From an uncultured Candidatus Saccharibacteria bacterium (GTDB lineage Bacteria; Patescibacteriota; Minisyncoccia; Phycocordibacterales; JAACPR01), in NCBI GenBank assembly GCA_964385145.1, contig CAYLNC010000003.1, forward strand, positions 1 through 33,979: a stretch of 33,979 nt of DNA, given 5' to 3'. Positions 8,471 to 28,181 of this stretch are shown in pieces. The position numbers and the translations under genes were made by a program. Under the pieces are notes generated by a model. That model did not search any database, was not told where the DNA came from, and saw only the letters and a program-made list of their open reading frames with translations. Within the stretch, counting starts at the first letter, position 1. Every line of letters begins with the position of its first letter.

Positions 8471-8545
8471 GGGGGTATAGTTTAATTGGGAAAACGTTGC
8501 CTTTGCAAGGCAGTGTTCGGGGTTCGAGTCCCCGTACTTCCACCA
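8471..8545 (+). tRNA. tRNA-Ala (anticodon UGC), CCA encoded, G3.U70 present
   Basis: GGGGGTA TA GTTT AATTGGG AAAC G TTGCC TTTGCAA GGCAG TGTT CGGGG TTCGAGT CCCCG TACTTCC A CCA. Confidence 0.9.
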
Positions 8546-8552
8546 AAACCTA

Positions 8553-8942
8553 ATGAAGCTACCACCTAAAACTAGACTATCTCTAAATCTTTTCCTAATT
8601 CTACTACTTCTAATCATTCATTTTATGTTTAGAGTAGTAGATGTTTCTGGTTTTAGTATGCTTCCTACCTACAGTAATGGAACCCTAACTCTAGCTACCA
8701 GATACCCCAATCTATTTGGAGGTATTGAACCTAAAAAAGATATTATTCTTTTTAAAAAGAATAATGAGTATTTTGTCAAAAGAGTAGTTTATAGTAATAC
8801 TAAAGGCTACTTTGTAGTAGGTGATAACGTTTACTATTCTTATGACTCTAGAGACTTTGGACTCGTAACAAAAGAAGAAGTTCTAGGAAAATTGGTCTTT
8901 CCCAGAAAGGCCCCTAAAAACTATCCCAACCCAGAATATTGA
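8553..8942 (+). CDS. Signal peptidase I (S26) homolog
   Basis: 129-aa ORF. N-terminal TM segment LSLNLFLILLLLIIHFMF, Ser box GFSMLPTY, Lys box FVKRVV, and GDNVYYSYDSRDFG box. Confidence 0.75.
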   Translation: MKLPPKTRLSLNLFLILLLLIIHFMFRVVDVSGFSMLPTYSNGTLTLATRYPNLFGGIEPKKDIILFKKNNEYFVKRVVYSNTKGYFVVGDNVYYSYDSRDFGLVTKEEVLGKLVFPRKAPKNYPNPEY

Positions 8943-9015
8943 GGGATCGTCTAGTTGGTAAGACCTCTGCCTTTGGAGCAGAAGACCGTAGGTTCGAGCC
9001 CTACTCCCTCAGCCA
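8940..9015 (+). tRNA. tRNA-Gln (anticodon UUG), CCA encoded
   Basis: TGAGGGA TC GTCT AGTTGGTA AGAC C TCTGC CTTTGGA GCAGA AGACC GTAGG TTCGAGC CCTAC TCCCTCA G CCA. The first 3 nt are the TGA stop of the upstream CDS. Confidence 0.9.
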
Positions 9016-9023
9016 TTTTCTAT

Positions 9024-9491
9024 ATGAGTAAACTAAAATTTAAATGTACAAAAGTAGAGTGGTACTATGAACTTAACTCTAAGTGGTTTGGTTCTTGGAA
9101 GCAAGAACTAGCTAAGCAAAAAAGAGAAGATAGAAGATATGATGGACCAGCTCATTATCTAAAGCTTGCTGAAGATACTTCTATAACAGATCAACTTCCA
9201 AAAAGAGAAGGGATTCAGTTTTGGGTAAGAAAAGGTAAAGGTTACTATGATCAGTATATCTTTATGGAAAATAAATGGTTTGTAACAAAAGAACCACAAA
9301 CTGGAGTGTATGAATTTAGAATGAACGTTAAGCAGAAAATTGCTGATATAGTTCTAGAGACTCCTACTAAGATTTTAAGAGCTCCCTATGCAAAACTTAA
9401 GGCTTTTCTAGAAGTAGAAAAGTCTGTAAGAAGAGTAGTTAGAGATACTAATCTACATACTCTCAAATCCAACCGACGACCCGCCAAATGA
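9024..9491 (+). CDS. Hypothetical protein
   Basis: The track ORF 8955..9491 begins inside tRNA-Gln. Start trimmed to the internal ATG (MSKLKFKCTK...), 8 nt after the tRNA CCA. Confidence 0.6.
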   Translation: MSKLKFKCTKVEWYYELNSKWFGSWKQELAKQKREDRRYDGPAHYLKLAEDTSITDQLPKREGIQFWVRKGKGYYDQYIFMENKWFVTKEPQTGVYEFRMNVKQKIADIVLETPTKILRAPYAKLKAFLEVEKSVRRVVRDTNLHTLKSNRRPAK

Positions 9492-13489: not shown

Positions 13490-13579
13490 GGAGAAGTGCC
13501 AGAGAGGATGATTGGGTCTGTCTTGAAAACAGATAATCAGATAACTGATTCGTGGGTTCGAATCCTACCTTCTCCCCCA
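13490..13579 (+). tRNA. tRNA-Ser (anticodon UGA), class II, CCA encoded
   Basis: GGAGAAG TG CCA..TGG G TCTGT CTTGAAA ACAGA, a long variable arm (TAATCAGATAACTGATTC), then GTGGG TTCGAAT CCTAC CTTCTCC C CCA. Confidence 0.88.
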
Positions 13580-13909: not shown

Positions 13910-14040
13910 AAAAGAAACCAAAGACTCATTTAGGTTCTATTATGAGAAAAGCTAAAGTTCATACGAATGAAGATAAGCGACTATATAATAGACGTAAAAG
14001 AAAGAAGCTTACTAAAAAAGAAATAGAAGATGCTGAATAG
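13906..14040 (+). CDS. Small highly basic hypothetical protein (44 aa)
   Basis: Not in the ORF track because it is under 60 aa. ATGA overlap with the upstream ORF. Sequence MKKKPKTHLGSIMRKAKVHTNEDKRLYNRRKRKKLTKKEIEDAE. The last base of its stop codon is base 1 of tRNA-Ser(GCU). Confidence 0.4.
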   Translation: MKKKPKTHLGSIMRKAKVHTNEDKRLYNRRKRKKLTKKEIEDAE

Positions 14041-14127
14041 GAGCGTTGCCAGAGAGGACTATTGGGGCAACCTGCTAAGTTGTTGGGCTATACAGTCCCA
14101 GAGGTTCGAATCCTCTACGCTCCTCCA
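14040..14127 (+). tRNA. tRNA-Ser (anticodon GCU), class II, CCA encoded
   Basis: GGAGCGT TG CCA..TGG G GCAAC CTGCTAA GTTGT, variable arm TGGGCTATACAGTCCCA, then AGAGG TTCGAAT CCTCT ACGCTCC T CCA. Confidence 0.85.
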
Positions 14128-14252: not shown

Positions 14253-14747
14253 ATGAATATCAATTCGATTAAAAATGAAAAATGTCTAGTCTATTCAGAA
14301 GTTATTCTAATAGATAATGAAGGAAAAAATCTAGGTAAAGTTAAGACTAGAGAGGCCCTAAAGATGGCTAAAGGTCTTAGTCTTGATCTAGTAATTGTTG
14401 ATCCTACTAGAGAAGTACCTATTAGCAAGATGCTTGATTACGGAAAATATCAATACGAGATGAGCCGTAAGAAGCAGCCAAAAGCTAAGGAACTAAAGTG
14501 TATTACTCTTAGACCAGTAACAGGTCCCCATGACCTAGATACTAAGATAAAACACATTAGAAAGTTTCTTGAAGAAGGTCATAAGGTCAAACTTGAATGT
14601 AAGTTTAAGAGACCAGAACTCGCCCATCCTGATCTAGGGAAAGAGAAACTAGAGTATATAGTTTCTGCTCTAGATAAACTTGCCAAACCAGATAAAGATA
14701 TTACCTTAGAAGGTCGCTCTATGTTTTGTATTTTAGCGCCGCTCTAA
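14253..14747 (+). CDS. infC: Translation initiation factor IF-3 homolog
   Basis: 164-aa ORF that aligns by eye along the full length of bacterial IF3. N-domain: VILIDNEGKNLGKVKTREALKMAKGLSLDLVIV...MLDYGKYQYE. Lys-rich linker. C-domain: ITLRPVTGPHDLDTKIKHIRKFLEEGHKVKL...GRSMFCILAP. Confidence 0.9.
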   Translation: MNINSIKNEKCLVYSEVILIDNEGKNLGKVKTREALKMAKGLSLDLVIVDPTREVPISKMLDYGKYQYEMSRKKQPKAKELKCITLRPVTGPHDLDTKIKHIRKFLEEGHKVKLECKFKRPELAHPDLGKEKLEYIVSALDKLAKPDKDITLEGRSMFCILAPL

Positions 14748-14761
14748 GGGTCGGAGAAAAA

Positions 14762-16333
14762 ATGAATTACGGAAAATATTCTAATCCTACTAAAATTCCT
14801 CAGTCTCAGCCTATTCCTGGTAAGAATATGAAGAAGAACAATGCAGGAGGGTATAGTTTTACTGTCTCTCCTTGGCAGTTTTTGACCAGATTTCTTATCC
14901 TGGGAACAGAGGGAGGTAGCTATTACTTAAGTGAGCAGAAACTTACTCTTGGAGCACTCTCTAATCTTCAACACTGTATTCAGGAAGATGGAGTAAGGGT
15001 CGTTAATGAGATCGTTCAGATTTCAGATGAGGGTCGAGCAGTTAAAAATGATCCTGCCATCTTTGCACTTGCTGCAGTAGTTAAGTTAGGAAATGACGAT
15101 GCAAGAAAGGCTGCTTATGCAGCTCTTCCTAAGGTATGTAGAATTGGGACCCATCTCTTTACTTTTGCAGAAGCCCTAAAAGATCTGCAGAAGGGCTGGG
15201 GCCGTGGTCTTAAGACTGCTGTTAGTAAGTGGTATTTAGATAAGTCTGCTGATAAGCTTGCTTATCAAGTAGTTAAGTATCAACAGAGAAATGGCTGGTC
15301 CAATAGAGATCTTTTAAGGCTCTCGCACCCAATTAGTAAGGATGCTACCCTAAATGCAGTCTTTAAGTGGATTGTAGATGGTACTGTTTCTGAGGAACTA
15401 CCTAAGGTAATTGAAGGTTTTGAGCTTGCTAAGAAGGCTACTTCTGCAAAGCAAATTATTAAGCTAATTAATGATTATGATTTGCCTAGAGAAGCTATTC
15501 CTACTACGTATCTTAATGATGCTACAGTTTGGGCGGCCCTTCTTCCTAAAATGCCCTATACTGCTCTTATGAGAAATTTGGGCAACCTCTCTAAGCACAA
15601 CCTACTTAAGCCTCTTAGTAGCGAAAGTAAAATGGTAATTGATAAGCTTACTAATGAGGACAATATTAAGGCTGCTAGAGTTCACCCTATTAGTATTCTT
15701 ATTGCTATGAAGCAGTATGCCTCTGGACGCGGCTTAAAGGGTAGTGGTAGTTGGTCTGCTGATCCTAATGTAACCTCTGCTCTAGAAGATGCCTTCTATA
15801 AAGCCTTTAAGTATATTGAGCCTACAAATCTTAATTATCTTTTAGGAATTGATATATCTGGGTCTATGTCCTATTCAAGAAATGGTGTTCTTACTGCAGC
15901 AGAGTGTGCAGCTGCAATAGCTATGTCTATTGTTAAGTCTGAAAAGCATACTTATACTATGGGATTTAGTACTAACTTTATTCATCTTGGGATCAACAAA
16001 AATCAAAGTCTAAAGAATGTTTTAAAGACTACTACCAATAGGACGTTTGGTGGTACTGATTGTGCTCTTCCTATGGAATATGCCCTACAGAATAAGCTAG
16101 ATGTAGATGTCTTTATTGTTATTACCGACAATGAGACATGGGCAGGTAATATTCATCCGAGTGAGGCACTAAAGCAATATAATAAGGCCATGAATAAGAA
16201 AGCCAAGCTAATTGTCTTGGCTACTGACGCTACTAGCTTTACAATTGCAGAGCCTGGTAATCCTCTAATGCTTGACATTGCTGGTTTCGATGCTAGTGTG
16301 CCTGCGGCAATAGCCGAATTTGCTAAGATGTAA
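14762..16333 (+). CDS. rsr: Ro60-related protein (Rsr): TROVE domain plus C-terminal vWA domain
   Basis: Start trimmed to MNYGKYS (GGAG upstream). TROVE-like blocks: YSFTVSPWQFLTRFLILGTEGGSYY and VVKYQQRNGWSNRDLLRLSHP. vWA MIDAS motif GIDISGSMS, and later ITDNETW. Confidence 0.85.
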   Translation: MNYGKYSNPTKIPQSQPIPGKNMKKNNAGGYSFTVSPWQFLTRFLILGTEGGSYYLSEQKLTLGALSNLQHCIQEDGVRVVNEIVQISDEGRAVKNDPAIFALAAVVKLGNDDARKAAYAALPKVCRIGTHLFTFAEALKDLQKGWGRGLKTAVSKWYLDKSADKLAYQVVKYQQRNGWSNRDLLRLSHPISKDATLNAVFKWIVDGTVSEELPKVIEGFELAKKATSAKQIIKLINDYDLPREAIPTTYLNDATVWAALLPKMPYTALMRNLGNLSKHNLLKPLSSESKMVIDKLTNEDNIKAARVHPISILIAMKQYASGRGLKGSGSWSADPNVTSALEDAFYKAFKYIEPTNLNYLLGIDISGSMSYSRNGVLTAAECAAAIAMSIVKSEKHTYTMGFSTNFIHLGINKNQSLKNVLKTTTNRTFGGTDCALPMEYALQNKLDVDVFIVITDNETWAGNIHPSEALKQYNKAMNKKAKLIVLATDATSFTIAEPGNPLMLDIAGFDASVPAAIAEFAKM

Positions 16334-18021: not shown

Positions 18022-18314
18022 AGCTATCTATAAAACGCTCACAGACGCAGTGTCTCTTACTTAGTAATGGAGATGTTATAGTTACCGAGCTTTTTACTAG
18101 TGGAATCTGGGCAGCAGATAGTATTCGTATATGCCAAATGACTATAAAAAAGCCAACAATAGATAAACATCTTCCTTGGTTTAATTTATATCTTGATAAA
18201 CTAGGAGTTCCATTCTGCCGAAGACAGTTTGATTCCTATGGAGCCAGGCCTCTAAACCTATATCCTAGGCATGTTATAAATTCTCAACCCTTTAAAAGAG
18301 TACTAGATGATTGA
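18018..18314 (+). CDS. Hypothetical protein
   Basis: Start moved to the ATG that forms an ATGA overlap with the upstream stop. The track start is 18000. Confidence 0.5.
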   Translation: MKLSIKRSQTQCLLLSNGDVIVTELFTSGIWAADSIRICQMTIKKPTIDKHLPWFNLYLDKLGVPFCRRQFDSYGARPLNLYPRHVINSQPFKRVLDD

Positions 18315-19656
18315 ACTTTCAAATGTAATAACTTTAACAGATCAAGATAGAGAAAGAAATTTAGAGACAGTTCATCTTAACTGTATTGGAGAAAATCCTG
18401 CCTATTCTGTATTTCAAAGGATGTGTCAACTAAAGCCCTGGATGTCTAAGATGGCACCTCCAGATAAAGAGATAATTCTCTTTACTGACAAGAATAAGAT
18501 TTTAACTTGTCCTAGGGGCCTTTTAGGATTACTAGATATAGATTCTCCTATAATTGATTTAACCTCCAATGTTCCTATAGTTGGGTTTACTCCTACCTAT
18601 AAACTTAGAAAGGATCAAGAAGAGGCAGTTGATGCCTTGTTAGATGGAAGATTTGGGATTTTAGAGGCTCCTACTGGTTCTGGAAAGACGTTGATGGGTT
18701 TAGAGATTGCTAACAGATTAAAGCAAAGAACTCTCTTTTTGGTACATACTAAGAGCTTACTAAAGCAGACCATTCAGGAAGTAAAAACAAAGTTAGGCTA
18801 CGATCCTGGAATTATTGGAGATGGTAAATTTATAGTTAAAGACTTTACAGTAGGAACTATTCAAACTCTCTTACGTAAAGATCCTAGTACATATCAAGAT
18901 CTATTTGGCTTAGTGATTCAAGATGAAGCACATCATATTCCGTGCAACTCTTTTACTAAGATTATAAACAGTTTTAGAGCTAAATACGTTTATGGGCTAA
19001 CGGCAACCCCACAAAGAACAGATAAATTAGATTGGGTCCTCTATTCATGTATTGGTCCTAAGGGGTATGTAATAGATAGGAACTCTCTAGTAGATAAAAA
19101 TGCTATTGTTCATCCTCAAATTATTACCCTAAATACTCCCTTTATTCCTTCTAAAGAGTACCAAGAGTTTGATATAGTAGCTCATATTAATGCTCTTACA
19201 AAGGATAATATAAGAAATGCTTTTCTTATCCAGTCTGTAGATAATGTACTAAGACAAAATCCAGACTGTAGACCAGTAATTCTAACAGAGCGAATTGCTC
19301 ATGCTGAATATCTAGCAGAGCAGTTTAGAGGATATAATCCTGTTTTGTATCATGGAAGCTTATCAAAGAAACAGGCAGAAGAAGCTCTGAAAGAAATTAA
19401 ACTAAACTCTAGGCTCACGATTTCCACATATGCTTCTATAGGCGAAGGGTTTGACGTTCCACTTTGGGATACTCTTTTTATAACCACTCCTTTTACCAGT
19501 CCAGTACGGCTTATCCAAATTATTGGAAGAGTTTGTAGAGCTGCAAAAGGAAAGGATACTGCATTTGTCTATGATTTCGTAGATGTAAATGACAATGTAC
19601 TATATAAAAGGTATCTTAAAAGAAAAGGAGTTTACAATTCTTACTTCTCTAAATGA
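18307..19656 (+). CDS. SF2 DEAH-box helicase (Res-subunit / XPB-like)
   Basis: Motif I APTGSGKT, motif II QDEAHH, motif III LTATP, motif VI QIIGRVCR. Confidence 0.8.
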   Translation: MIELSNVITLTDQDRERNLETVHLNCIGENPAYSVFQRMCQLKPWMSKMAPPDKEIILFTDKNKILTCPRGLLGLLDIDSPIIDLTSNVPIVGFTPTYKLRKDQEEAVDALLDGRFGILEAPTGSGKTLMGLEIANRLKQRTLFLVHTKSLLKQTIQEVKTKLGYDPGIIGDGKFIVKDFTVGTIQTLLRKDPSTYQDLFGLVIQDEAHHIPCNSFTKIINSFRAKYVYGLTATPQRTDKLDWVLYSCIGPKGYVIDRNSLVDKNAIVHPQIITLNTPFIPSKEYQEFDIVAHINALTKDNIRNAFLIQSVDNVLRQNPDCRPVILTERIAHAEYLAEQFRGYNPVLYHGSLSKKQAEEALKEIKLNSRLTISTYASIGEGFDVPLWDTLFITTPFTSPVRLIQIIGRVCRAAKGKDTAFVYDFVDVNDNVLYKRYLKRKGVYNSYFSK

Positions 19657-20141: not shown

Positions 20142-20525
20142 ATGGCAAACGACTCTACTGAACTAACAATTCCGATTGAAAAGAATCCTCATTTTACTCT
20201 ACAAAATGATCTAGATTCTGAGACTAACGTTTGGGGTTTGGACTATTTTCCTCACTATGGAATGATTGCTGCCCAGCCCTCTGCCCTCTGTATTCCCGCC
20301 ATTACTATGGCTTGCTTTAATCCTGCCTCTATTCCTTTTCTTGAGAAAGTAAAGGTTGGAGACTTTATTAATGCAACTGCGGATATTCACCATCCTATCT
20401 TTACTGCGTGGAATCCTCCTAAGGATTATATGCTTGAAGAGGGATTTCAAAAGATGTATGTTGTTAAGAACGTTGATGAGGATGCTTTGGGCTTCCCAAT
20501 CATCGTTGCTGAGGAGGCTCTCTAA
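20142..20525 (+). CDS. Hypothetical protein
   Basis: 127-aa ORF. No motif recognised. Confidence 0.55.
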   Translation: MANDSTELTIPIEKNPHFTLQNDLDSETNVWGLDYFPHYGMIAAQPSALCIPAITMACFNPASIPFLEKVKVGDFINATADIHHPIFTAWNPPKDYMLEEGFQKMYVVKNVDEDALGFPIIVAEEAL

Positions 20526-21121
20526 TGGCAGCTAATGCCCTACTTGAAGGTTATAAGAAGACAAAGGAGAAGCTTGATAATTGGCCACTAATGTCTTGTT
20601 CTCATGAGGAGAAGGTAGAGTGGTTTAGGGATGTTATCGGTGCCCGAATTACCCAGGTTCTTCTCTCTAATGATCGAGTAACCGAGATTGTAGTAGTTGA
20701 TGATCTCTATGATGTGGCTTCAGAGGCTCTGGAAGATATGCCTCTTCCAGACTCCTTCCCGGATCAGCAGAATATTACTAGAGATCAGCTAGCTAGAGAA
20801 TTTTCTAACTTTTGTAAGGGTCTTGTTATAAGAACTGCTACCCTAGAAAGCATGTATACGGAGAATGATGATGTTCCTCCGGATCTGCAATTTATTGGGC
20901 TAGTAACAGAAGGAATGAGAATTCGAAGATTCATCGAAGACTGGGATAGAAGTATTGGGTTTACTGCTGGCCTTCGGGCAGTTGGTTGTCCGTTTAACTT
21001 CTCCTTTGAGGAGCTAAAGCTTCTATTTGGCTTCTCGCACCTAATGCGAAGTATCGCACAGCGTGTTGGTGAAGGCTATCAGCCTCAGCCCGAAAACGCT
21101 AACGAGTTCAAGATTGGTTAA
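20525..21121 (+). CDS. Hypothetical protein
   Basis: 198-aa ORF with TAATG overlap upstream. No motif recognised. Confidence 0.55.
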   Translation: MAANALLEGYKKTKEKLDNWPLMSCSHEEKVEWFRDVIGARITQVLLSNDRVTEIVVVDDLYDVASEALEDMPLPDSFPDQQNITRDQLAREFSNFCKGLVIRTATLESMYTENDDVPPDLQFIGLVTEGMRIRRFIEDWDRSIGFTAGLRAVGCPFNFSFEELKLLFGFSHLMRSIAQRVGEGYQPQPENANEFKIG

Positions 21122-21124
21122 ACC

Positions 21125-21154
21125 AGGTGAGCCCTAGGGCTCACCTTTCTTTTT
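21125..21154 (+). terminator. Rho-independent terminator
   Basis: Perfect 22-nt palindrome AGGTGAGCCCT/AGGGCTCACCT (21125-21146), followed by TTCTTTTT that abuts the next ATG. Confidence 0.75.
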
Positions 21155-22396
21155 ATGGATAGCATCACTCATACCACAGCAGCTTCTTATCAACCATTTA
21201 GCTCGGAAACCCGAGTAAAAGATTTTGAAATTCCTAAATATTTAACCTTTGGTGGTACTATGATTAAAGTACCCAAAGGCCTCCATCAAAAAGATATTCA
21301 TTACCTTCTTGATGAACTTGGAAAGCCAGTAAGATGCGCCTGGATTTCCAAGCCTATTGCCCACCTTCTTAACTCTATGAGGTTTGAGAACTCAGATCTT
21401 AGAGTTAGAGAGCTTGAAAGAGCTATTGATGCTGTAGATGTAGAAATCCAAAACTTAGTTAGAGTAGGAGTTCTTAAGGACAAACATGGCCCTGGAGCCA
21501 TGAGCTTCTGTCAGACCCATGAAAATGTTCCTAAGGGGCATATTCTTATCTCCGAACGAACCTTCAAAACTCTTGTAGCAACTAATCCCAAGTGGGAAAA
21601 GACTAAGACGGTAGCTGTAACTAGATTTCCTAATCTAGGCCCTGCTACTACTCAGGAGCTTAGAATTATTGTTAATGCAACTAATGATAAGAAGCCCATT
21701 AGCTCTACTTCTATAGGAGCTCGTCTTCCTAATTTAGCTTCTCTTCTAGAAGAAGTTGAAGACACTATAGATCTTTCTGGGGTGCTAGATCCTTTCTACG
21801 TTAACCAGAAAGACCTAAAGGACGGTTTTCAGGGTGACTGTGATGGTGACCAGCTCTTTATTACTAGAAAGAGAAATGGGTATCCTATCTTTAGAGAAAT
21901 TTCTCTAGTTAGAGAGAGTGCCGATATTAGTGAAGACGATGTAAATCTTCTACTAAAGAAGGCTAATAGGCTAGATAGAAATGATCTTTCTTCTTGGCTA
22001 GGAACTTACTTTGATGATGTTCCTATCGGCCCAGCCACCTATGCCATTAGGTGGATGCTCTTTAACACCCTTCCCAAATATAAGAACTCAGATCATCCTA
22101 TGCATGAGGCATGGAAAGAGATTGCTCCTAGGGCAATTGAGATGATTGAGTTTGTTATGGACATTCGTAAGGGAGAGTGGACTAATCAGCAGATTGAGAC
22201 TAAAATGGCTTATATTAAGGATAAGCAAAAGGAGATTTCTGCTGCCCAAGAGACACAAAATTGGTTTGCTCTAACTGTAACATCTAGTAAGAGTTTTGAA
22301 GTTGCTGAATTTATTAAGCGATTTAGAACTCTTCAAGCTTACATGGATTTTGTAACTGGCCAGACTAATACTATAAGGAGTATGGCAAATGAGTAA
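21155..22396 (+). CDS. Candidate beta-prime-like catalytic double-psi beta-barrel subunit of a divergent RNA polymerase
   Basis: 413-aa ORF. VAVTRFPNLGPATTQELRII (compare [20 protein letters not shown]). About 55 aa later, FYVNQKDLKDGFQGDCDGDQLFI (compare [21 protein letters not shown]). The DCDGD codons are at 21836-21850. The start could instead be the ATG at 21260. Confidence 0.5.
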   Translation: MDSITHTTAASYQPFSSETRVKDFEIPKYLTFGGTMIKVPKGLHQKDIHYLLDELGKPVRCAWISKPIAHLLNSMRFENSDLRVRELERAIDAVDVEIQNLVRVGVLKDKHGPGAMSFCQTHENVPKGHILISERTFKTLVATNPKWEKTKTVAVTRFPNLGPATTQELRIIVNATNDKKPISSTSIGARLPNLASLLEEVEDTIDLSGVLDPFYVNQKDLKDGFQGDCDGDQLFITRKRNGYPIFREISLVRESADISEDDVNLLLKKANRLDRNDLSSWLGTYFDDVPIGPATYAIRWMLFNTLPKYKNSDHPMHEAWKEIAPRAIEMIEFVMDIRKGEWTNQQIETKMAYIKDKQKEISAAQETQNWFALTVTSSKSFEVAEFIKRFRTLQAYMDFVTGQTNTIRSMANE

Positions 22397-22745
22397 AGAC
22401 CCAGATGTAATAACGGTTGAAGAGCTAGCAGATATGTCAACTCAAGAGATTATGGATCTCTTGATGTTTGAATCTTACTGTTTTGTTAATGACGGCCCAA
22501 CATGTCACTGTGGGATTGAAAAGATTGGAGAAGTTTTAGGATATCTTCCAGATCAACTTTGTGAGGGAACTCTAGAAGAGGTTGATTTAAGTTCTCTTAA
22601 CTTTGAAACACAAGTTTCTGGGCTCTGTCCTTGTCAAGAAGCACATTTCTTTACTCTTAAGGTGGAAAATGGAGTAGCATCCTGGATACCTTCTGAGGGC
22701 AAATTGATGTGTGGAAATAGTCGAATTCGTATACCAAATAGATAA
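22389..22745 (+). CDS. Small acidic Cys-containing protein (possible zinc-binding)
   Basis: 118-aa ORF with SD AGGAG upstream. Cys pairs CHCG and CPCQ. Confidence 0.55.
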   Translation: MSKDPDVITVEELADMSTQEIMDLLMFESYCFVNDGPTCHCGIEKIGEVLGYLPDQLCEGTLEEVDLSSLNFETQVSGLCPCQEAHFFTLKVENGVASWIPSEGKLMCGNSRIRIPNR

Positions 22746-24136
22746 TGGCATCACTTTATAGATTAGAGCATCGCGTAGTTGGATATTGTACCTTTATTTC
22801 TGTAGTTTGCCGAAGAGGCAATATAGAGGTACGATCCTCGGAAAAGGCCATTCCTCCTATCTTTGAGTATAGTGTAGATGGCTCCTTCCGAATTGTTGGA
22901 CCTAGGGAGGTAGTGAGTAGCCTTAAGAGCCATCCATATAAGCCAAATTCTCCTGAGTTTAGTAAGCAGAGACTTGCTGATCTAGAAGTCTCTATGCTCT
23001 ATAAGCATCTAGAGAATTTTCCTACTCTTTCTACTATCTATGAAGATGGTAAGACAAAGCCCCACCCTCTTACAGAGTATCTCTATAGCCAGATGGTCTA
23101 TCTTAGGCCAGATTCTGATCTAGCCGCTAAGCTAAATAAGCTTACGTATGTTCAAAAGACGGAAAGCCTTCCTCTTATTTTAGAGAAGCTAGCTGCTAAT
23201 GTAGAGAAGAAAACTGGAATAAAGATTGATCTTTTTTCGGTTCCCAAGAGAAAGGTTGGAACTTTTGCCTATATTGGAGATGTTGATGGAATAGCAAAGG
23301 TTGCCAAAACTTTTGCTTTTGGTTTCCATAATATTATTCCTTGTGATAGGATTGCTAGAGAGCTCTCCTCTCTAAAGAGTGCAGAAAAGTTTTCTAATCC
23401 ACAAGAAGTTCCTTACGATCTTCCAGATGAGATACGACCCTATGTTTCTATGCTTAGGGTTGGTATAGTTGGAGTTAAACACTCTATGCTAGATGGAGCA
23501 GATCTCTATAAATCTGGTCTAAATAAGATTGCCTCTAGGCTTTCTAGAAAGAAGATTACCAGAGATATTACTTCTGTTCCTAAGGAAAAAAGAAATATAG
23601 TTGCTAAGCCCTTTAGGGCTGGTATCGAGATTTACCATGAGGATGAAACTGTGGTTGATGAGCTAGAGTCAAGTCCTGGCGGTATTAGACTAGTTTTTCC
23701 TGGTGGAGTTAAGGTTGTAGCTGGACTAAGTAATAGTACGGCTAGAGATGCAAAAGGAAAGAGTATTGATGCTCTTATGAGCTTTGAGACTTTTGCTAAG
23801 AAGGGAGCATTAGCTTGCTTTGTTATGAGCCCTGAAAATGCACTAAAGAACCTAACTCTTGATGAGGCTACTGAACTCTTTATGGCTAAGCCTAAAGAGA
23901 AAATAGTAGTAGATGGAGTTGAGTACCTAGGCTACATTGTAGACCTTCCCGTCATTAGGCCGGGACAGCGGTACACCGAGTTGTCAAAGGTTAGTAATAG
24001 CATTACTACTGACCTTATTGCTAAAGCAATTTTGAAGGCAGAATATAAGGTTTCTGATTCTAAGGAAGAAGAATACCTTGATCTTGTCCATTTTCGAAAT
24101 GCATTAGTTAAAGAAATCTCTAAGCTATCTAGATAA
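22745..24136 (+). CDS. Hypothetical protein; weak candidate beta-like barrel partner of the 21155 ORF
   Basis: 463-aa ORF with TAATG overlap upstream. FPGGVKVVAGLSNSTARDAKGKSIDALMSFETFAKKGA loosely resembles beta GDKxAGRHGNKG...VDIVLNPLGVPSRMNIGQ. The function call is speculative. Confidence 0.3.
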   Translation: MASLYRLEHRVVGYCTFISVVCRRGNIEVRSSEKAIPPIFEYSVDGSFRIVGPREVVSSLKSHPYKPNSPEFSKQRLADLEVSMLYKHLENFPTLSTIYEDGKTKPHPLTEYLYSQMVYLRPDSDLAAKLNKLTYVQKTESLPLILEKLAANVEKKTGIKIDLFSVPKRKVGTFAYIGDVDGIAKVAKTFAFGFHNIIPCDRIARELSSLKSAEKFSNPQEVPYDLPDEIRPYVSMLRVGIVGVKHSMLDGADLYKSGLNKIASRLSRKKITRDITSVPKEKRNIVAKPFRAGIEIYHEDETVVDELESSPGGIRLVFPGGVKVVAGLSNSTARDAKGKSIDALMSFETFAKKGALACFVMSPENALKNLTLDEATELFMAKPKEKIVVDGVEYLGYIVDLPVIRPGQRYTELSKVSNSITTDLIAKAILKAEYKVSDSKEEEYLDLVHFRNALVKEISKLSR

Positions 24137-24143
24137 CAAAAGC

Positions 24144-25454
24144 ATGAAACAGATACACGTTGATGATCTCACCCCTATCTCGCTTCGTCAAGCGAGTACG
24201 ATTTGTTTCGAACAGTTCCTTGCCGAAAAACGGAGTGGTGTTCGTATTACTCCAATTTTCCTTGGAGCTCCTGGTCAGGGCAAGACTGCCATTGTTGAGG
24301 ACTTTGCTCAGTATCTCAACAACAATAAGGAGCTTTATCGAGAAGCTCTAATTAATCGCTGCCTTGCTAATGGTAAGACTCAGAAGGAAGCAGAAGAAAT
24401 TGCTAATCAGGATTGGGTTTGTATTAGCTACCGCTTAGCTCAGTGCGACCCTACTGACTTGAAGGGTGTTCCTGTTTATACTTCTATTGACGGAGCAGAG
24501 ATGTGTACTTTTGCTCCTCCTATGGTATTCCCTATGGAAGGCCTAAAGAATAGTGCTCATGGAAAGAATGTTCTTATCTTTCTTGATGAGGTTCCTCAGG
24601 CAAACCCCTCTATTCAGAATCTTGCTGCAAACATTATTGATGGTAAGGTTGGTGACTATACCATTGATATTTGCCGATCCTTTATCGTTTGTGCAGGTAA
24701 CCGAAAAGAGGACAAAGCGGCCACCTATGATATTCCTCGGAATGTAGGTAACCGTCTTGTGAAATTTAATGTTCGTACTACTTTTCCTGAGTGGGAAGAG
24801 TGGGCTATCAATCATGATATTAATCCTCTTGTTGTTGGCTTCTTGAAGTCTAATCAAAACTTCTTTAATGAGGCTATTCCAGATAATGGTTACACTTATG
24901 GTACCCCTCGATCCTGGCACAAGCTGTCTTGTCAGGTTAACTCTCTTGGTGAGGACTTTCTTACTAAGGAAAGCTATCCTCTATATATGATTCAGGGTAC
25001 TGTTGGTATGGCTAGTGCCAATATTTTCTACCAGTATGCTAAGACTGTTAAGAATAAGTACGCTATTGAGGACATTATTGATGGTAAGGCTGTTAGTGTT
25101 CCTTCTAAGGAGGAACGAGATATGCTTTATTCTATTGTCCTTCAGGGTGTCTATACTATTAACAACTGGGTACTTGAGGCAATTAGTGATGCCAACTATC
25201 AGACTGCTAAGACACCAGATCGAAACGAGGCCTTTATAAAGGCTTTGGGTCCCAGACGAGTTAATGGTATTAGCAATATTTATCTTTGGCTCGACCAACC
25301 TGGAATCGACCCTGCCTTTAAGGTTCTTATCAATAAGTATCAGCGTGATGAAATTAAGTCTCCGCTTCGAGGAGCTATGTCGTCTCGCCCCGAATTTAAG
25401 GATGCATTTAAGAGCTATACGGAAATCGTTAAGGCTCTTGCACGTTCGCACTAA
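24144..25454 (+). CDS. MoxR/AAA_5-type AAA+ ATPase
   Basis: 436-aa ORF. Walker A GAPGQGKT and Walker B VLIFLDEV. Paired with a downstream vWA protein, like the CbbQ/NorQ/CobS-type modules. Confidence 0.75.
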   Translation: MKQIHVDDLTPISLRQASTICFEQFLAEKRSGVRITPIFLGAPGQGKTAIVEDFAQYLNNNKELYREALINRCLANGKTQKEAEEIANQDWVCISYRLAQCDPTDLKGVPVYTSIDGAEMCTFAPPMVFPMEGLKNSAHGKNVLIFLDEVPQANPSIQNLAANIIDGKVGDYTIDICRSFIVCAGNRKEDKAATYDIPRNVGNRLVKFNVRTTFPEWEEWAINHDINPLVVGFLKSNQNFFNEAIPDNGYTYGTPRSWHKLSCQVNSLGEDFLTKESYPLYMIQGTVGMASANIFYQYAKTVKNKYAIEDIIDGKAVSVPSKEERDMLYSIVLQGVYTINNWVLEAISDANYQTAKTPDRNEAFIKALGPRRVNGISNIYLWLDQPGIDPAFKVLINKYQRDEIKSPLRGAMSSRPEFKDAFKSYTEIVKALARSH

Positions 25455-25457
25455 CCT

Positions 25458-25479
25458 TTGGGGGCCCTAGGGCCCCCAA
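25458..25479 (+). terminator. GC-rich 22-nt perfect palindrome (terminator-like hairpin, weak T tract)
   Basis: TTGGGGGCCCT/AGGGCCCCCAA, located 3 nt after the ATPase stop. It shares the core GCCCTAGGGC with the hairpin at 21125. Confidence 0.45.
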
Positions 25480-25488
25480 TTATAAGAT

Positions 25489-26910
25489 ATGAGTAACACT
25501 GTTTCTAATCCAGAAAAACTTGAGACTGAATCTATTCAGCCTAATGATGAGGAAGTTAGACTCACTACAGAAGCTTTCATTCATGCTAGAATGAAGTTTA
25601 TTGAAGAAAATCCTTTTTATGGAGTTCTTCTTCTAAATGTAGATCCAGTAGCAACTGGAGGAGAAGTACCTATTGCTGCTGTTAACTATAAGAATCTCTT
25701 TCTTAATGCAGTAGATAGAAAGAGATCCGATAATCCAGTAAGTTTTCCTTTTCATGAACTAACTAAGAGGGGCCGAGAGGTTGTTCTTGTTCATGAAATT
25801 TCTCACTTAATCTTTGAGCATCTTAGCATCCCAGCAAATTTCAATAGGGATATTTGTAATATTGCAATGGATGCGGTGATCAATAGAATAATTGATGAGG
25901 ATCCTAAGCTATCCCTGGATGAGCTTCCTAAGGGATGTGTTAGACCTATTAGAACCTATAATGGATATACTGGATTTACTATTGGTGAAGGCCCGACCCA
26001 AAAGCAGTTTAACATTGAGGGTTTCAAAGATATGGATTGGATTCCTATCTATTGGGCCATCATGGAGCAACTTGAAAAAGAGTGTAAAGCTGCTGGAGGT
26101 AAGCAATCTCGAGGTAAGCAATCTCGAGAAGAGCTAGCTAAATCTATCCAACAAGCTGCAAAGAAACTTGCAGACAAGAACCCTATGAATGGCGATATTA
26201 AAGAGCCTGAAGAGGGAGAAGGAGAGGGAACTCCTGAGTTTGAGCAGGCAAAGGCAAAATTTCGATCAAAGGTGATTGAAGCCTATGAAACTGCTAAATC
26301 ACAGGGTTTAGCTCCTGCTGGGATGGAGCGGTATATTGATGTGCTAACTACTGCTAAAGTTAAGTGGACTGACTATCTTAGACAGCTCATTAGAACTGAG
26401 ATTTCTAAGTCTGACTTTTCACACAAAGCAAACTCTCGAAGGGCCCACATTGGATTTGGTACTAAGAAGAGACCTCCTATCTTTCCTAAGGTAGAAAGTG
26501 AAACTCTTAGCAATGTGTGGTTGGCTCTAGATACTTCTGGCTCGATGAGCCAAGATGATATTACACAGGGCCTTAGTGAGTTTGCTAGTCTTCGTCAAAC
26601 GTTACCCTTTCCGTTGCACTTTGTTAGCTGCGATGCTGCAGTTTATGAAGTTCAGAGTTATGATTCTACGGAAGAGCCTGATTGGACAACGCTTAGTATA
26701 GATGGGGGAGGAGGTACTGACTTTAGGCCAGTCTTTGATCTCATAGCGCAATATCAGAAAGAGAAGGGAATTCGCCCAGCACTTCTCGTTTTCTTTACTG
26801 ATACTTTTGGATCTTTTCCAGAAAAGGAACCCGATTATCCAGTTATCTGGGTATGCAACTATAGGGGTGGACAGGTACCTTGGGGTACCTTAATCAATAC
26901 GGCGGACTAG
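25489..26910 (+). CDS. Zincin-like (DUF2201_N-type) plus vWA domain protein, partner of the MoxR ATPase
   Basis: 473-aa ORF. HExxH in VLVHEISHLIFEH. Acidic/low-complexity linker. C-terminal vWA MIDAS motif LALDTSGSMS. Confidence 0.7.
   Translation: MSNTVSNPEKLETESIQPNDEEVRLTTEAFIHARMKFIEENPFYGVLLLNVDPVATGGEVPIAAVNYKNLFLNAVDRKRSDNPVSFPFHELTKRGREVVLVHEISHLIFEHLSIPANFNRDICNIAMDAVINRIIDEDPKLSLDELPKGCVRPIRTYNGYTGFTIGEGPTQKQFNIEGFKDMDWIPIYWAIMEQLEKECKAAGGKQSRGKQSREELAKSIQQAAKKLADKNPMNGDIKEPEEGEGEGTPEFEQAKAKFRSKVIEAYETAKSQGLAPAGMERYIDVLTTAKVKWTDYLRQLIRTEISKSDFSHKANSRRAHIGFGTKKRPPIFPKVESETLSNVWLALDTSGSMSQDDITQGLSEFASLRQTLPFPLHFVSCDAAVYEVQSYDSTEEPDWTTLSIDGGGGTDFRPVFDLIAQYQKEKGIRPALLVFFTDTFGSFPEKEPDYPVIWVCNYRGGQVPWGTLINTAD
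26097..26126 (+). repeat. Perfect 15-bp tandem duplication (GGTAAGCAATCTCGA x2), in frame
   Basis: Read directly from the sequence. It encodes GKQSR-GKQSR in the linker of the vWA protein. Confidence 0.9.
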
Positions 26911-26914
26911 GTAA

Positions 26915-27712
26915 ATGAGGAAGGATCCCTTTAAAGAGTTTCTAAAGGCTCAAATAGCTAAAGAAAAAGAAGTCTCTACAGGCTCTCTTTTCTTAGATAG
27001 GGCTTTTGGAATTCCACTGGGATCCTTTCTCTTACTAAAAGGTCCAGCTAATTTTGGAACTACTGCAATTGTATTGGGTCTTGCAGAAACGCTTATAGAG
27101 CTAGACAAGACAGTAGTCTATGTTGACCCAATTCTATCAGCACAGCCACACAAACTTTCTCCTAGGCTAGCTGAAAAACTTCTTATTCTTAGGCCTTGGG
27201 ACTTAAAGCCTTCAGAAATATATTCCGTAGCTATAGAAATTTTAGATATTGATTCAGAAGCAATATTTATCTTTGATAATATCTATCTTCTAGAGAATCT
27301 TTGGAAAAGTTCCCAGTGGAACTTTGCAGAACTAATAAGGAGAATTAGAGAATACAGCTTTGGAAGTACCATAATAGGCACACAACGAGAGAGTAGACAT
27401 TATGATATCTGGTCTCAAGTTGTAACCATCAAGGGTAAAGAAAATATTTATGCTAAAGAAGAGGGTGCCTCAGTTCACAAGGGCCATATTTTAAGCCTAA
27501 GTGGTCCAAGGGGCAAATCCGAAGTCTATATAGACTATTCAATAGGGAGAGTTTCAAAAGCCTATGAAGAGGTCTTCTTACAAATAGAAAAAGGCGAAAA
27601 AAGTTTGCAGTCAGCATTTGGTACTAACGATAGTAGAACTACAGGTGCGTGGAATTATATACATAAAATGGGTGAGCTAAGTAGGCGAGAAAATGAAACT
27701 AGTAAGATTTAA
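26915..27712 (+). CDS. RecA-fold protein with degenerate ATPase motifs
   Basis: 265-aa ORF. GSFLLLKGPANFGTTAIVLGLA aligns with RecA [22 protein letters not shown], with Walker Lys replaced by Thr. VYVDPILSAQP aligns with FIDAEHALDP, with the catalytic Glu lost. A Walker B-like segment AIFIFDN is retained. Confidence 0.55.
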   Translation: MRKDPFKEFLKAQIAKEKEVSTGSLFLDRAFGIPLGSFLLLKGPANFGTTAIVLGLAETLIELDKTVVYVDPILSAQPHKLSPRLAEKLLILRPWDLKPSEIYSVAIEILDIDSEAIFIFDNIYLLENLWKSSQWNFAELIRRIREYSFGSTIIGTQRESRHYDIWSQVVTIKGKENIYAKEEGASVHKGHILSLSGPRGKSEVYIDYSIGRVSKAYEEVFLQIEKGEKSLQSAFGTNDSRTTGAWNYIHKMGELSRRENETSKI

Positions 27713-28181
27713 AGTAGTAACAATAGACAAAGTTAGAGGTACTGATACAGTTTTAGTTAATGCTCTTTGCACTTTTGATCATCAAGGTAAAGAGTATGAG
27801 GTTTCTGGTATAACTACAGGAGAATCTCTAGAAAACGTAGCTAGCCTTTGTCAACAAGCAAAAGAATCGGCTGAGAACCTCTTTAAGCTTATGTTTAATA
27901 TAGAGAGCTCTTCCGAATCCAAGGTTTCTGAACCTCTATCTAAGTTTGTGAGAGAGGTTATTTCTCCTGCAGTTATGAAGGAAGCAAAAACATACAAGCA
28001 GGACGAACTAAAGAAACTCTATGAACCTGCTGATGATCATAAGCAGAAGAAAGTTTCTGAGCTATGCGAAACTTTAGGAATAGATATTATTCCTGTTCAG
28101 GATAGCTGGACTATGATTGAAGTTCTTGTTCTGATTTCCTATCTAGAAAAGATGGCAGATGGAATAGTTGGAGGCCAGTAG
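27693..28181 (+). CDS. Hypothetical protein
   Basis: 162-aa ORF overlapping the upstream gene by 20 nt. No motif recognised. Confidence 0.55.
   Translation: MKLVRFKVVTIDKVRGTDTVLVNALCTFDHQGKEYEVSGITTGESLENVASLCQQAKESAENLFKLMFNIESSSESKVSEPLSKFVREVISPAVMKEAKTYKQDELKKLYEPADDHKQKKVSELCETLGIDIIPVQDSWTMIEVLVLISYLEKMADGIVGGQ

Follow-up and report, generated by a model that had tools for sequence, protein, structure and literature searches.

Can a multisubunit-type RNA polymerase (RNAP) be reduced to one small polypeptide for each of its two catalytic barrels? The question is raised by two adjacent genes in a stretch of 33,979 nucleotides (contig CAYLNC010000003.1 of assembly GCA_964385145.1, positions 1 to 33,979, filed under an uncultured Candidatus Saccharibacteria bacterium; hereafter the window), which is the nucleic-acid-metabolism region of a large phage. 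An earlier note on this DNA had proposed that the two genes encode a minimal RNAP with its barrels split between them. We consider it fairly probable (roughly 0.65) that they encode drastically reduced homologues of beta-prime and beta that form a two-barrel phage RNAP, host-independent and DNA-dependent. The core evidence is that two independent structural models, of the products of adjacent genes, each exclusively match a different catalytic subunit of one and the same enzyme; as modelled, the pair resembles the beta-prime and beta subunits of multisubunit-type RNAPs.

Eight close loci were compared (the window, L001-L004 and L006-L008, on contigs of up to 146-250 kb), each inspected over +/-10 kb around the genes. 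Residues are counted per protein and nucleotide positions refer to the plus strand of the window. The three open reading frames (ORFs) lie where the earlier note had placed them, and the features on which the argument turns are the following:

21155-22396, plus strand: predicted beta-prime-like catalytic subunit gene (413 amino acids, aa), from ORF, conservation, model and signature
21623-21652, plus strand: first barrel motif R157-F-P-N-L-G-P-x-T-T166, the counterpart of beta-prime N-R425-A-P427-T-L-H, from invariant columns and the [RK]xP signature
21833-21850, plus strand: G227-D228-C-D230-G-D232, predicted Mg-binding Asp triad, the counterpart of beta-prime D460/D462/D464, from invariance in 36 sequences and hhalign
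22148-22174, plus strand: E332-F-V-M-D336-I-R338-K339-G340, tip of a predicted helical hairpin in the C-terminal helical domain, with E332, D336 and K339 invariant
22389-22745, plus strand: Cys-rich protein (118 aa) with C39-x-C41 ... C80-x-C82-x3-H86, these Cys and His residues invariant, present in seven of the eight loci
22745-24136, plus strand: predicted beta-like catalytic subunit gene (463 aa), from ORF, conservation, model and fold searches
23699-23728, plus strand: barrel motif P319-G-G321-V-K323-V-V-A-G-L328, with G321 and K323 invariant
23768-23809, plus strand: D342-A-L-M ... A-K-K353-G354-A355, counterpart region of beta 'G-T-P-V-D-I-V-L-N-P-L-G-V-P-S-R-M', from conservation and hhalign
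23948-23971, plus strand: conserved basic motif P402-V-I-R405-P-G-Q-R409 on the last barrel strand (392-404 in the model), with R405 invariant and P402 and R409 nearly so

Both peptides that had been read as the two parts of a beta-prime barrel signature are present in the 413-aa protein, VAVTRFPNLGPATTQELRII at residues 153-172 (21611-21670) and FYVNQKDLKDGFQGDCDGDQLFI at residues 214-236 (21794-21862), the latter holding the aspartates at 228, 230 and 232. Their spacing, given as about 55 residues, has to be corrected to 41, with R157 and D228 lying 71 residues apart. The 463-aa protein contains GGVKVVAGLSN at residues 320-330 (23702-23734) as well as DAKGKSIDALMSFETFAKKGA at residues 335-355 (23747-23809); the end coordinate reported for the latter, 23794, fell 15 nucleotides short. 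The small protein with Cys pairs between the two large ORFs proved to be real and conserved (C39, C41, C80, C82 and H86 invariant), and its sequence makes it a probable Zn-binding accessory subunit. Its start overlaps the stop of the beta-prime-like gene (ATGAGTAA) and its stop overlaps the start of the beta-like gene (TAATG), and these overlaps on both sides point to translational coupling.

Both large proteins were modelled as monomers with AlphaFold2, without templates and from alignments of family members only. For the 463-aa protein (predicted local distance difference test score, pLDDT, 87; predicted template-modelling score, pTM, 0.80), the best 50 matches of a Foldseek search against the PDB were second-largest RNAP subunits without exception (50/50; Rpb2 of Pol I-IV, archaeal B, African swine fever virus and vaccinia), with E values down to 5.2e-8, 290 matches at E <= 1e-3, 350-400 aligned columns and TMq of 0.33-0.39. 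The best 25 matches in the BFVD viral library were again second-largest RNAP subunits, from giant viruses, poxviruses, ascoviruses and baculoviruses (E 2.6e-8 to 8e-5), and jumbo-phage beta proteins came out far weaker (PDCC-1, E 2.6e-3; phiKZ-like Noxifer, E 3.8e-2). The predicted fold identifies this protein as a homologue of the second-largest RNAP subunit, so that the assignment once put forward as weak is now the stronger half of the proposal. The family comprises 41-42 homologues, in which K168, P199, R202, E206, E306, G321, K323, K353, G354, R405 and D423 are invariant, the basic ones among them being K168, R202, K323, K353 and R405. Aligned with E. coli beta by hhalign, the family profile had its best local stretch at 1083-1101 (EDMPYDENGTPVDIVLNPL), and an extended low-confidence alignment, not significant alone, paired P319-G-G-V-K323 with beta P1062-G-D-K1065. 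The conserved motifs correspond to the C-terminal half of beta, which seems to be the only part that the protein covers.

The model of the 413-aa protein (pLDDT 81, pTM 0.58) was equally exclusive in what it retrieved from the PDB: the best 50 matches were all RNAP largest subunits (50/50), with bacterial beta-prime, cyanobacterial gamma, Rpb1 and Pol I/IV chains among them, 22 matches at E <= 1e-3, about 260 aligned columns and a TM-score of ~0.2. Closest was 7s00_d, a 410-residue N-terminal beta-prime fragment of the non-virion RNAP of phage AR9 (E 2.1e-4). On the strength of this template-free model the protein is a homologue of the RNAP largest subunit, in its core only, and the model of the 463-aa product provides the partner with a beta-type fold that the earlier proposal had looked for. 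Measured against the E. coli enzyme, no clamp, Zn-binding domain, rim helices, bridge helix or trigger loop was recognisable by sequence in the 413-aa protein. The protein has an extra C-terminal helical domain of ~150 residues, strongly conserved, with modelled helices at 291-309, 315-339 and 344-366; a bridge-helix- or trigger-loop-like role for the E332-G340 motif at the tip of its hairpin is speculative.

Conservation is concentrated where catalysis would take place. Among 25 close homologues of the 413-aa protein, R157, P159-P163 (P159-N-L-G-P163), T165, T166, G227, D228, D230, G231 and D232 are invariant, and among 36 sequences that include distant members, with identity down to 15%, D228, D230, D232, T295, E332, D336 and K339 still are. 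Invariance of the Asp triad across the 36 sequences makes the putative metal triad the family's most conserved feature, which, together with the exclusive retrieval of largest subunits, upholds the beta-prime-type barrel signature that the earlier note had seen in this ORF. The DxDGD motif occurs once in the six-frame translation of the window. The pattern [RK]xPx{20,100}DxDxD, a published filter for two-barrel RNAPs (Chaban et al. 2024), is satisfied by 35 of the 36 family members (R157-F-P159 ... D228-x-D230-x-D232), against a background of two unrelated matches among ~420 long reading frames and with E. coli beta-prime recovered as a positive control. The best local hhalign stretch of the family profile on E. 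coli beta-prime was 446-468, which contains NADFDGD, and in the resulting correspondence D228/D230/D232 fall on D460/D462/D464 and R157-x-P159 on R425-x-P427.

No YonO, QDE-1, crAss gp66, RDR or PolD chain appeared in the best 50 of either PDB fold search, and this absence of single-chain RNAPs places the family with the multisubunit clade. At the level of sequence it stands apart. The curated RNA_pol_Rpb1_* and RNA_pol_Rpb2_* models recognised neither large protein, and megablast and tblastn searches of 50,697 GenBank phage records returned no match; the relationship to known RNAPs consequently rests on structure and motifs.

The family is small and confined to large phage contigs. A set of 5.8 billion clustered proteins contains 35 homologues of the 413-aa protein, and a HMMER profile search of 1.84 billion representatives yielded only 46 clusters at E <= 1e-3, of 61-595 aa and with no full-length beta-prime among them; a fused form with both barrels was likewise absent from these 46 representative clusters, all <= 595 aa. 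Members sit on phage contigs of ~200-250 kb. In IMG/VR the family occurs on only three of 2.9 million contigs, all of 197-240 kb, and a pattern scan of 185,579 GTDB species-representative genomes did not find it at that scan's sensitivity. The two large genes are adjacent in all eight close loci, the Zn protein lies between them in seven (the exception being L007), and a MoxR-type ATPase and a DUF2201/VWA (von Willebrand factor A) protein follow the pair, also in seven. In two distant members (P0100 and P0105, at L009 and L011) the next gene encodes a ~500-aa protein that matches the beta-like profile (99.8% probability, E 6e-30 and 2e-27), and in a third (P0109, at L015) it encodes a truncated partner (86%, E 5e-6); these distant subgroups keep the pairing and the sizes without the Zn, MoxR or VWA genes. 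Three short contigs of the most divergent subgroup had no adjacent partner. The pair is adjacent in all 11 loci in which a partner was found, always as separate ORFs, as the proposal of barrels on separate genes had it, and the pairing of the two genes is obligate. Gene order in the window and in all related loci is beta-prime-like then beta-like, opposite to E. coli rpoB-rpoC, and the fused yeast plasmid enzyme, in which the beta barrel precedes the beta-prime one, likewise has an order opposite to that of the phage pair.

If the pair is a polymerase, it could work as follows. A single transcript with coupled translation would yield both subunits and the small zinc-binding protein. The double-psi beta-barrel of the beta-prime-like protein would carry the Mg-binding triad D228/D230/D232, the beta-like barrel would supply the invariant basic residues K323, K353 and R405, and the two barrels, placed face to face, would share one active site for template-directed polymerisation of nucleotides by the two-metal mechanism that cellular RNAPs use. 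The ~250-kb jumbo phage would express the enzyme from its early or middle nucleic-acid-metabolism region, and later phage genes would then be transcribed by it. Heterodimer assembly, an RNA rather than DNA product, a DNA template, the timing of expression and the completeness of the enzyme are all points that we infer. By analogy with other jumbo phages, which have multisubunit RNAPs of their own, host-independent transcription of phage genes is the most probable function.

How complete the enzyme is decides between this reading and its closest rival, according to which the two proteins are an N-beta-prime-like and a C-beta-like piece of a larger split RNAP in the style of phiKZ and AR9, with N-beta, C-beta-prime (bridge helix, trigger loop, lobe, protrusion) and perhaps a specificity subunit encoded elsewhere. 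The same-size AR9 N-beta-prime fragment (410 residues) is the closest PDB match, beta-prime in jumbo phages is cut right after the barrel with the subunit genes scattered, the 413-aa protein has no recognisable bridge helix or trigger loop, the motifs conserved in the 463-aa protein are those of the C-terminal half of beta, and the genomic view spans +/-10 kb. We nevertheless consider a larger split enzyme unlikely: within that span no conserved candidate for a further large subunit was found in the eight loci (a recurrent large protein, fam8, is without a polymerase motif), the ~150-residue C-terminal helical domain would be unneeded in an N-beta-prime fragment, distant members keep both sizes and pairing, giant-virus and cellular beta subunits match in structure far better than phiKZ-type ones do, and no BLAST similarity was found among the 50,697 phage records. 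It is possible, at odds somewhat below even, that the 413-aa and 463-aa proteins, with or without the 118-aa protein, constitute a complete and self-sufficient DNA-dependent RNAP of ~100-115 kDa, as a heterodimer or heterotrimer. Precedents from YonO and the RNAP of yeast virus-like elements (VLE) indicate that ~800-1,100 aa of two-barrel protein are enough for an RNAP; further beta-N and beta-prime-C pieces may be encoded elsewhere, and we therefore use 'minimal' as a working hypothesis.

Several results weigh against the reading of the pair as a reduced RNAP, and two further rivals draw on them. Global TM-scores were low for both models (0.2 for the beta-prime-like and 0.33-0.39 for the beta-like protein), which means that only the cores match. 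Pfam and PHROGs gave no match for the three proteins and no RNAP match for the distant members; profile hidden Markov model (HMM) searches of the full set of PDB sequences returned noise only, whether the profiles were narrow or broadened; and hhalign against single E. coli beta-prime and beta sequences was not significant (E 0.02-0.11), nor did it find a sequence match to the bridge helix or trigger loop in the C-terminal domain (E 0.7). The HMM-HMM comparison suggested earlier as a check is weak by itself but consistent, with no significant match to RNAP and with its best local alignments on the corresponding active-site motifs of the E. coli subunits. Where NADFDGD has its ribose-sensing Asn, the 25-homologue alignment of the 413-aa family shows Q, E or T, and this replacement makes ribose discrimination unreadable from sequence. 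The intergenic regions of the window hold no recurrent promoter-like motif, with sigma-70-like sites at chance level, and the neighbours of the pair are replication and repair genes, not obviously transcription genes. That the proteins are structural or regulatory and resemble RNAP by convergence or modelling artefact would fit the non-significant sequence statistics, the low TM-scores and a pTM of only 0.58 for the 413-aa model, but we regard it as very improbable indeed. Two independent models built from unrelated alignments exclusively match two different catalytic subunits of the same enzyme, the Asp triad comprises the most conserved residues of the family, the genes are paired wherever a partner was found, and the published two-barrel signature is satisfied.

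A two-barrel polymerase with a non-transcriptional role (a primase, a PolD-like DNA polymerase, or an RNA-templated or RNA-repair polymerase) would suit the company that the genes keep: the window encodes an RNA ligase, a polynucleotide kinase, a DNA ligase, a Ro60/TROVE protein, a superfamily 2 (SF2) helicase, a DnaB-like helicase, a primase-like protein, a uracil-DNA glycosylase and five tRNAs. No DNA polymerase gene was seen in it, the ribose-sensing Asn is replaced, and the superfamily holds PolD and QDE-1. We judge such a role quite improbable, because the best 50 matches of both models are all DNA-dependent RNAP subunits with no PolD, QDE-1 or RDR among them, the window already has a primase-like gene beside the DnaB-like helicase, and a DP1-like exonuclease partner is not present. 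The lack of a DNA polymerase gene means little, given that the window covers only ~34 kb of a ~250-kb genome.

The genes and elements that surround the pair are the following:

18307-19656, plus strand: SF2 (ResIII/DEAD) helicase, 1.5 kb upstream of the pair, linked to it in three of the eight loci and directly upstream in L006
21125-21154, plus strand: 9-bp GC-rich hairpin AGGTGAGCC-CTAG-GGCTCACCT followed by a T-run that reaches the ATG of the beta-prime-like gene (minimum free energy -18.7 kcal/mol)
24144-25454, plus strand: MoxR-type AAA+ ATPase, after the pair in seven of the eight close loci
25458-25479, plus strand: second hairpin with the common core GCCCTAGGGC, closing the beta-prime/Zn/beta/MoxR block, from motif search and folding
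25489-26910, plus strand: DUF2201 metallopeptidase-like and VWA protein, partner of the MoxR ATPase, in seven of the eight loci

The two hairpins bracket the beta-prime-like, Zn, beta-like and MoxR genes. Their palindromic core GCCCTAGGGC with its CUAG loop has exactly two exact copies in the window (21125-21146 and 25458-25479) and is absent from the related loci. A T-run follows the first only, which ends 8 nucleotides before the ATG with no Shine-Dalgarno sequence in between and looks like a terminator-like or RNA-stabilising element. No alpha- or omega-like gene was annotated in the eight neighbourhoods. The MoxR ATPase is a possible assembly chaperone for the pair. Used as a handle to divergent pairs in isolated jumbo phages it proved generic (565 phage records), PA5oct and Munch having no pair upstream of it; MoxR homologues are common in phages without such a pair, so MoxR and VWA are at most accessory. 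After the VWA gene, at 26915-28181, come two genes assigned to no family, which lead into the DnaB-like helicase and primase-like genes; one encodes 265 aa with a Walker-A-like 'GPANFGTT' and is kept in seven of the eight loci, the other encodes 162 aa and is kept in six.

Upstream of the pair, three further candidates for parts of the enzyme were considered and rejected. The 198-aa ORF at 20525-21121 was considered as a sigma factor and is not conserved across loci; a sub-threshold Pfam match to VMAP-M0 ('vWA-MoxR associated protein'; E 0.015, 16.3 bits against a cut-off of 25.9) hints that it belongs with the downstream MoxR/VWA pair. In six of the eight loci, the window and L001 being the exceptions, a ThiF/E1-like gene and then a large protein of 500-904 aa (fam8) precede the pair (L002:6087-9409, L003:6172-9394, L004:5039-7275, L006:4647-8007, L007:5490-8907 and L008:2649-5742). 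Fam8 (~800-900 aa) was discarded as a further subunit, having a conserved Cys/His core (VLCCAFDAT ... WYKxHPxT ... PYGLGIS ... GGGGHASYxGPR), a ThiF partner and no polymerase motif; it matches nothing in Pfam or PHROGs, and with ThiF it may form a ubiquitin-like conjugation or peptidase module. The third candidate, three consecutive minus-strand genes of the window (3663-6891; 446, 235 and 388 aa) in an otherwise plus-strand region, had no match in Pfam, PHROGs or the PDB and was not retained as the missing subunits; the trio has a GC content of ~0.41 against ~0.35 and may be an inserted module. In L002 only, the beta-prime-like gene is directly preceded, with an overlap, by a gene for a 156-aa protein with a genuine Sigma70 region 4 domain (L002:9544-10014; 31 bits, cut-off 24.1), a possible specificity factor of either the new enzyme or the host RNAP.

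Elsewhere in the window, an RNA-repair set comprises a T4 Rnl1-like RNA ligase, a polynucleotide kinase-phosphatase and a Ro60/TROVE protein with vWA (2342-3397, 6945-7847 and 14726-16333); an Rfam scan of the window found tRNAs only and no Y-RNA-like partner. The tRNAs lie at 1083-1157, 8471-8545, 8940-9015, 13490-13579 and 14040-14127 (Val-TAC, Ala-TGC, Gln-TTG, Ser-TGA and Ser-GCT). Both the end of ORF 8553-8942 and the TTG start of ORF 8955-9491 fall within the tRNA-Gln, and the start of the latter ORF is on this account probably miscalled. A related locus (L007:251-3199) has a ribonucleotide reductase gene into which an intein is inserted, and this intein carries a LAGLIDADG homing endonuclease domain.

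Cells rely on two-barrel RNAPs for all their transcription, and the path from a simple pair of barrel proteins to the huge beta and beta-prime subunits is an unsolved question. Were the pair complete, no smaller multisubunit-type RNAP would be known, and each of the two subunits would hold exactly one barrel, the layout postulated for the ancestor of beta and beta-prime before their large accretions. A natural enzyme in which each barrel has its own small polypeptide would serve as a minimal model for experiments on the beta/beta-prime heterodimer, would allow tests of how dispensable the clamp, bridge helix, trigger loop, flap and assembly platform are, and would offer synthetic biology a compact orthogonal polymerase. 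An uncultured group of ~250-kb phages probably has its own transcription enzyme, missed by every sequence-based annotation pipeline.

Published two-barrel RNAPs comprise single-chain enzymes, the jumbo-phage enzymes with subunits of nearly full size split into four to five pieces, the beta and beta-prime of full size that some metagenomic phages encode, and the yeast-plasmid enzyme with its fused barrels; the DNA polymerase PolD and RNA-dependent enzymes such as QDE-1 also belong to the superfamily. Jumbo phages are the size class in which multisubunit RNAPs are phage-encoded, and the non-virion enzymes of AR9 and phiKZ (N-beta-prime, C-beta-prime, N-beta and C-beta with gp226/gp68) likewise place the catalytic barrels on separate short polypeptides. 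In AR9 the beta-prime barrel sits in a ~410-aa protein, the N-beta-prime that was the closest PDB match. Neither these enzymes nor the new pair have an alpha or omega platform, and an SF2 helicase is sometimes linked, as the Rad25-like helicase is to the RNAP genes of phiKZ-type phages. The new pair differs in having no sequence similarity to them detectable by tblastn against phage records, in matching phiKZ-type beta structurally at only E 4e-2 against 3e-8 for giant-virus subunits, and in consisting, within the inspected span of the eight loci, of two adjacent and coupled genes instead of four scattered large ones. The pair also has a conserved C-terminal helical domain peculiar to the beta-prime-like protein and a Zn protein encoded between the two genes, and its combined length is ~880-1,000 aa, whereas the jumbo-phage enzymes, in which beta-prime is split right after the barrel, need four core polypeptides and a fifth subunit.

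With cellular, giant-virus and poxvirus RNAPs the pair shares both catalytic core folds and the placing of two barrels on two polypeptides. Shared with the cellular enzymes are the DxDGD triad and the preceding R-x-P and L-H-P elements, in the same order, as well as the beta basic barrel motif and 'D-x-x-G-x-x-V-D' motif in the beta-like protein; unlike theirs, each new subunit is about one third of normal size (413 and 463 aa, with family members of 330-600 aa, against >1,000 aa) and without a Pfam RNAP domain, no alpha or omega homologues lie nearby, and the beta-prime-like gene comes first. YonO of SPbeta, crAss-like phi14:2 gp66, P23-45 gp64/gp96 and QDE-1 are also highly reduced, are invisible to routine annotation and carry the same [RK]xP...DxDxD signature, but have both barrels in one chain, whereas the new family has two chains. 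YonO, a two-barrel protein of ~100 kDa that is sufficient for RNAP activity, is comparable to the new pair in total size. The VLE enzyme of pGKL2 (K2ORF6p and K2ORF7p; ~1,100 aa) is likewise a minimal two-polypeptide RNAP with an SF2 helicase partner, active without more than half of beta-prime and lacking most of the beta-prime clamp and the rim helices; it differs in its eukaryotic host, in its sequence similarity to canonical regions and in that both barrels are fused in the large subunit, the small one being the beta-prime C-terminus. It does not tolerate splitting between beta and beta-prime, exactly where the new family is split. PolD combines a single-chain DP2 with the Mre11-like exonuclease DP1, and no exonuclease partner is present in the conserved block of the new family. 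We found no paper on a phage polymerase with one small polypeptide per barrel. Judged from the models, what the window encodes is most likely a new family of the known two-barrel superfamily, isolated in sequence and with a new arrangement of its subunits.

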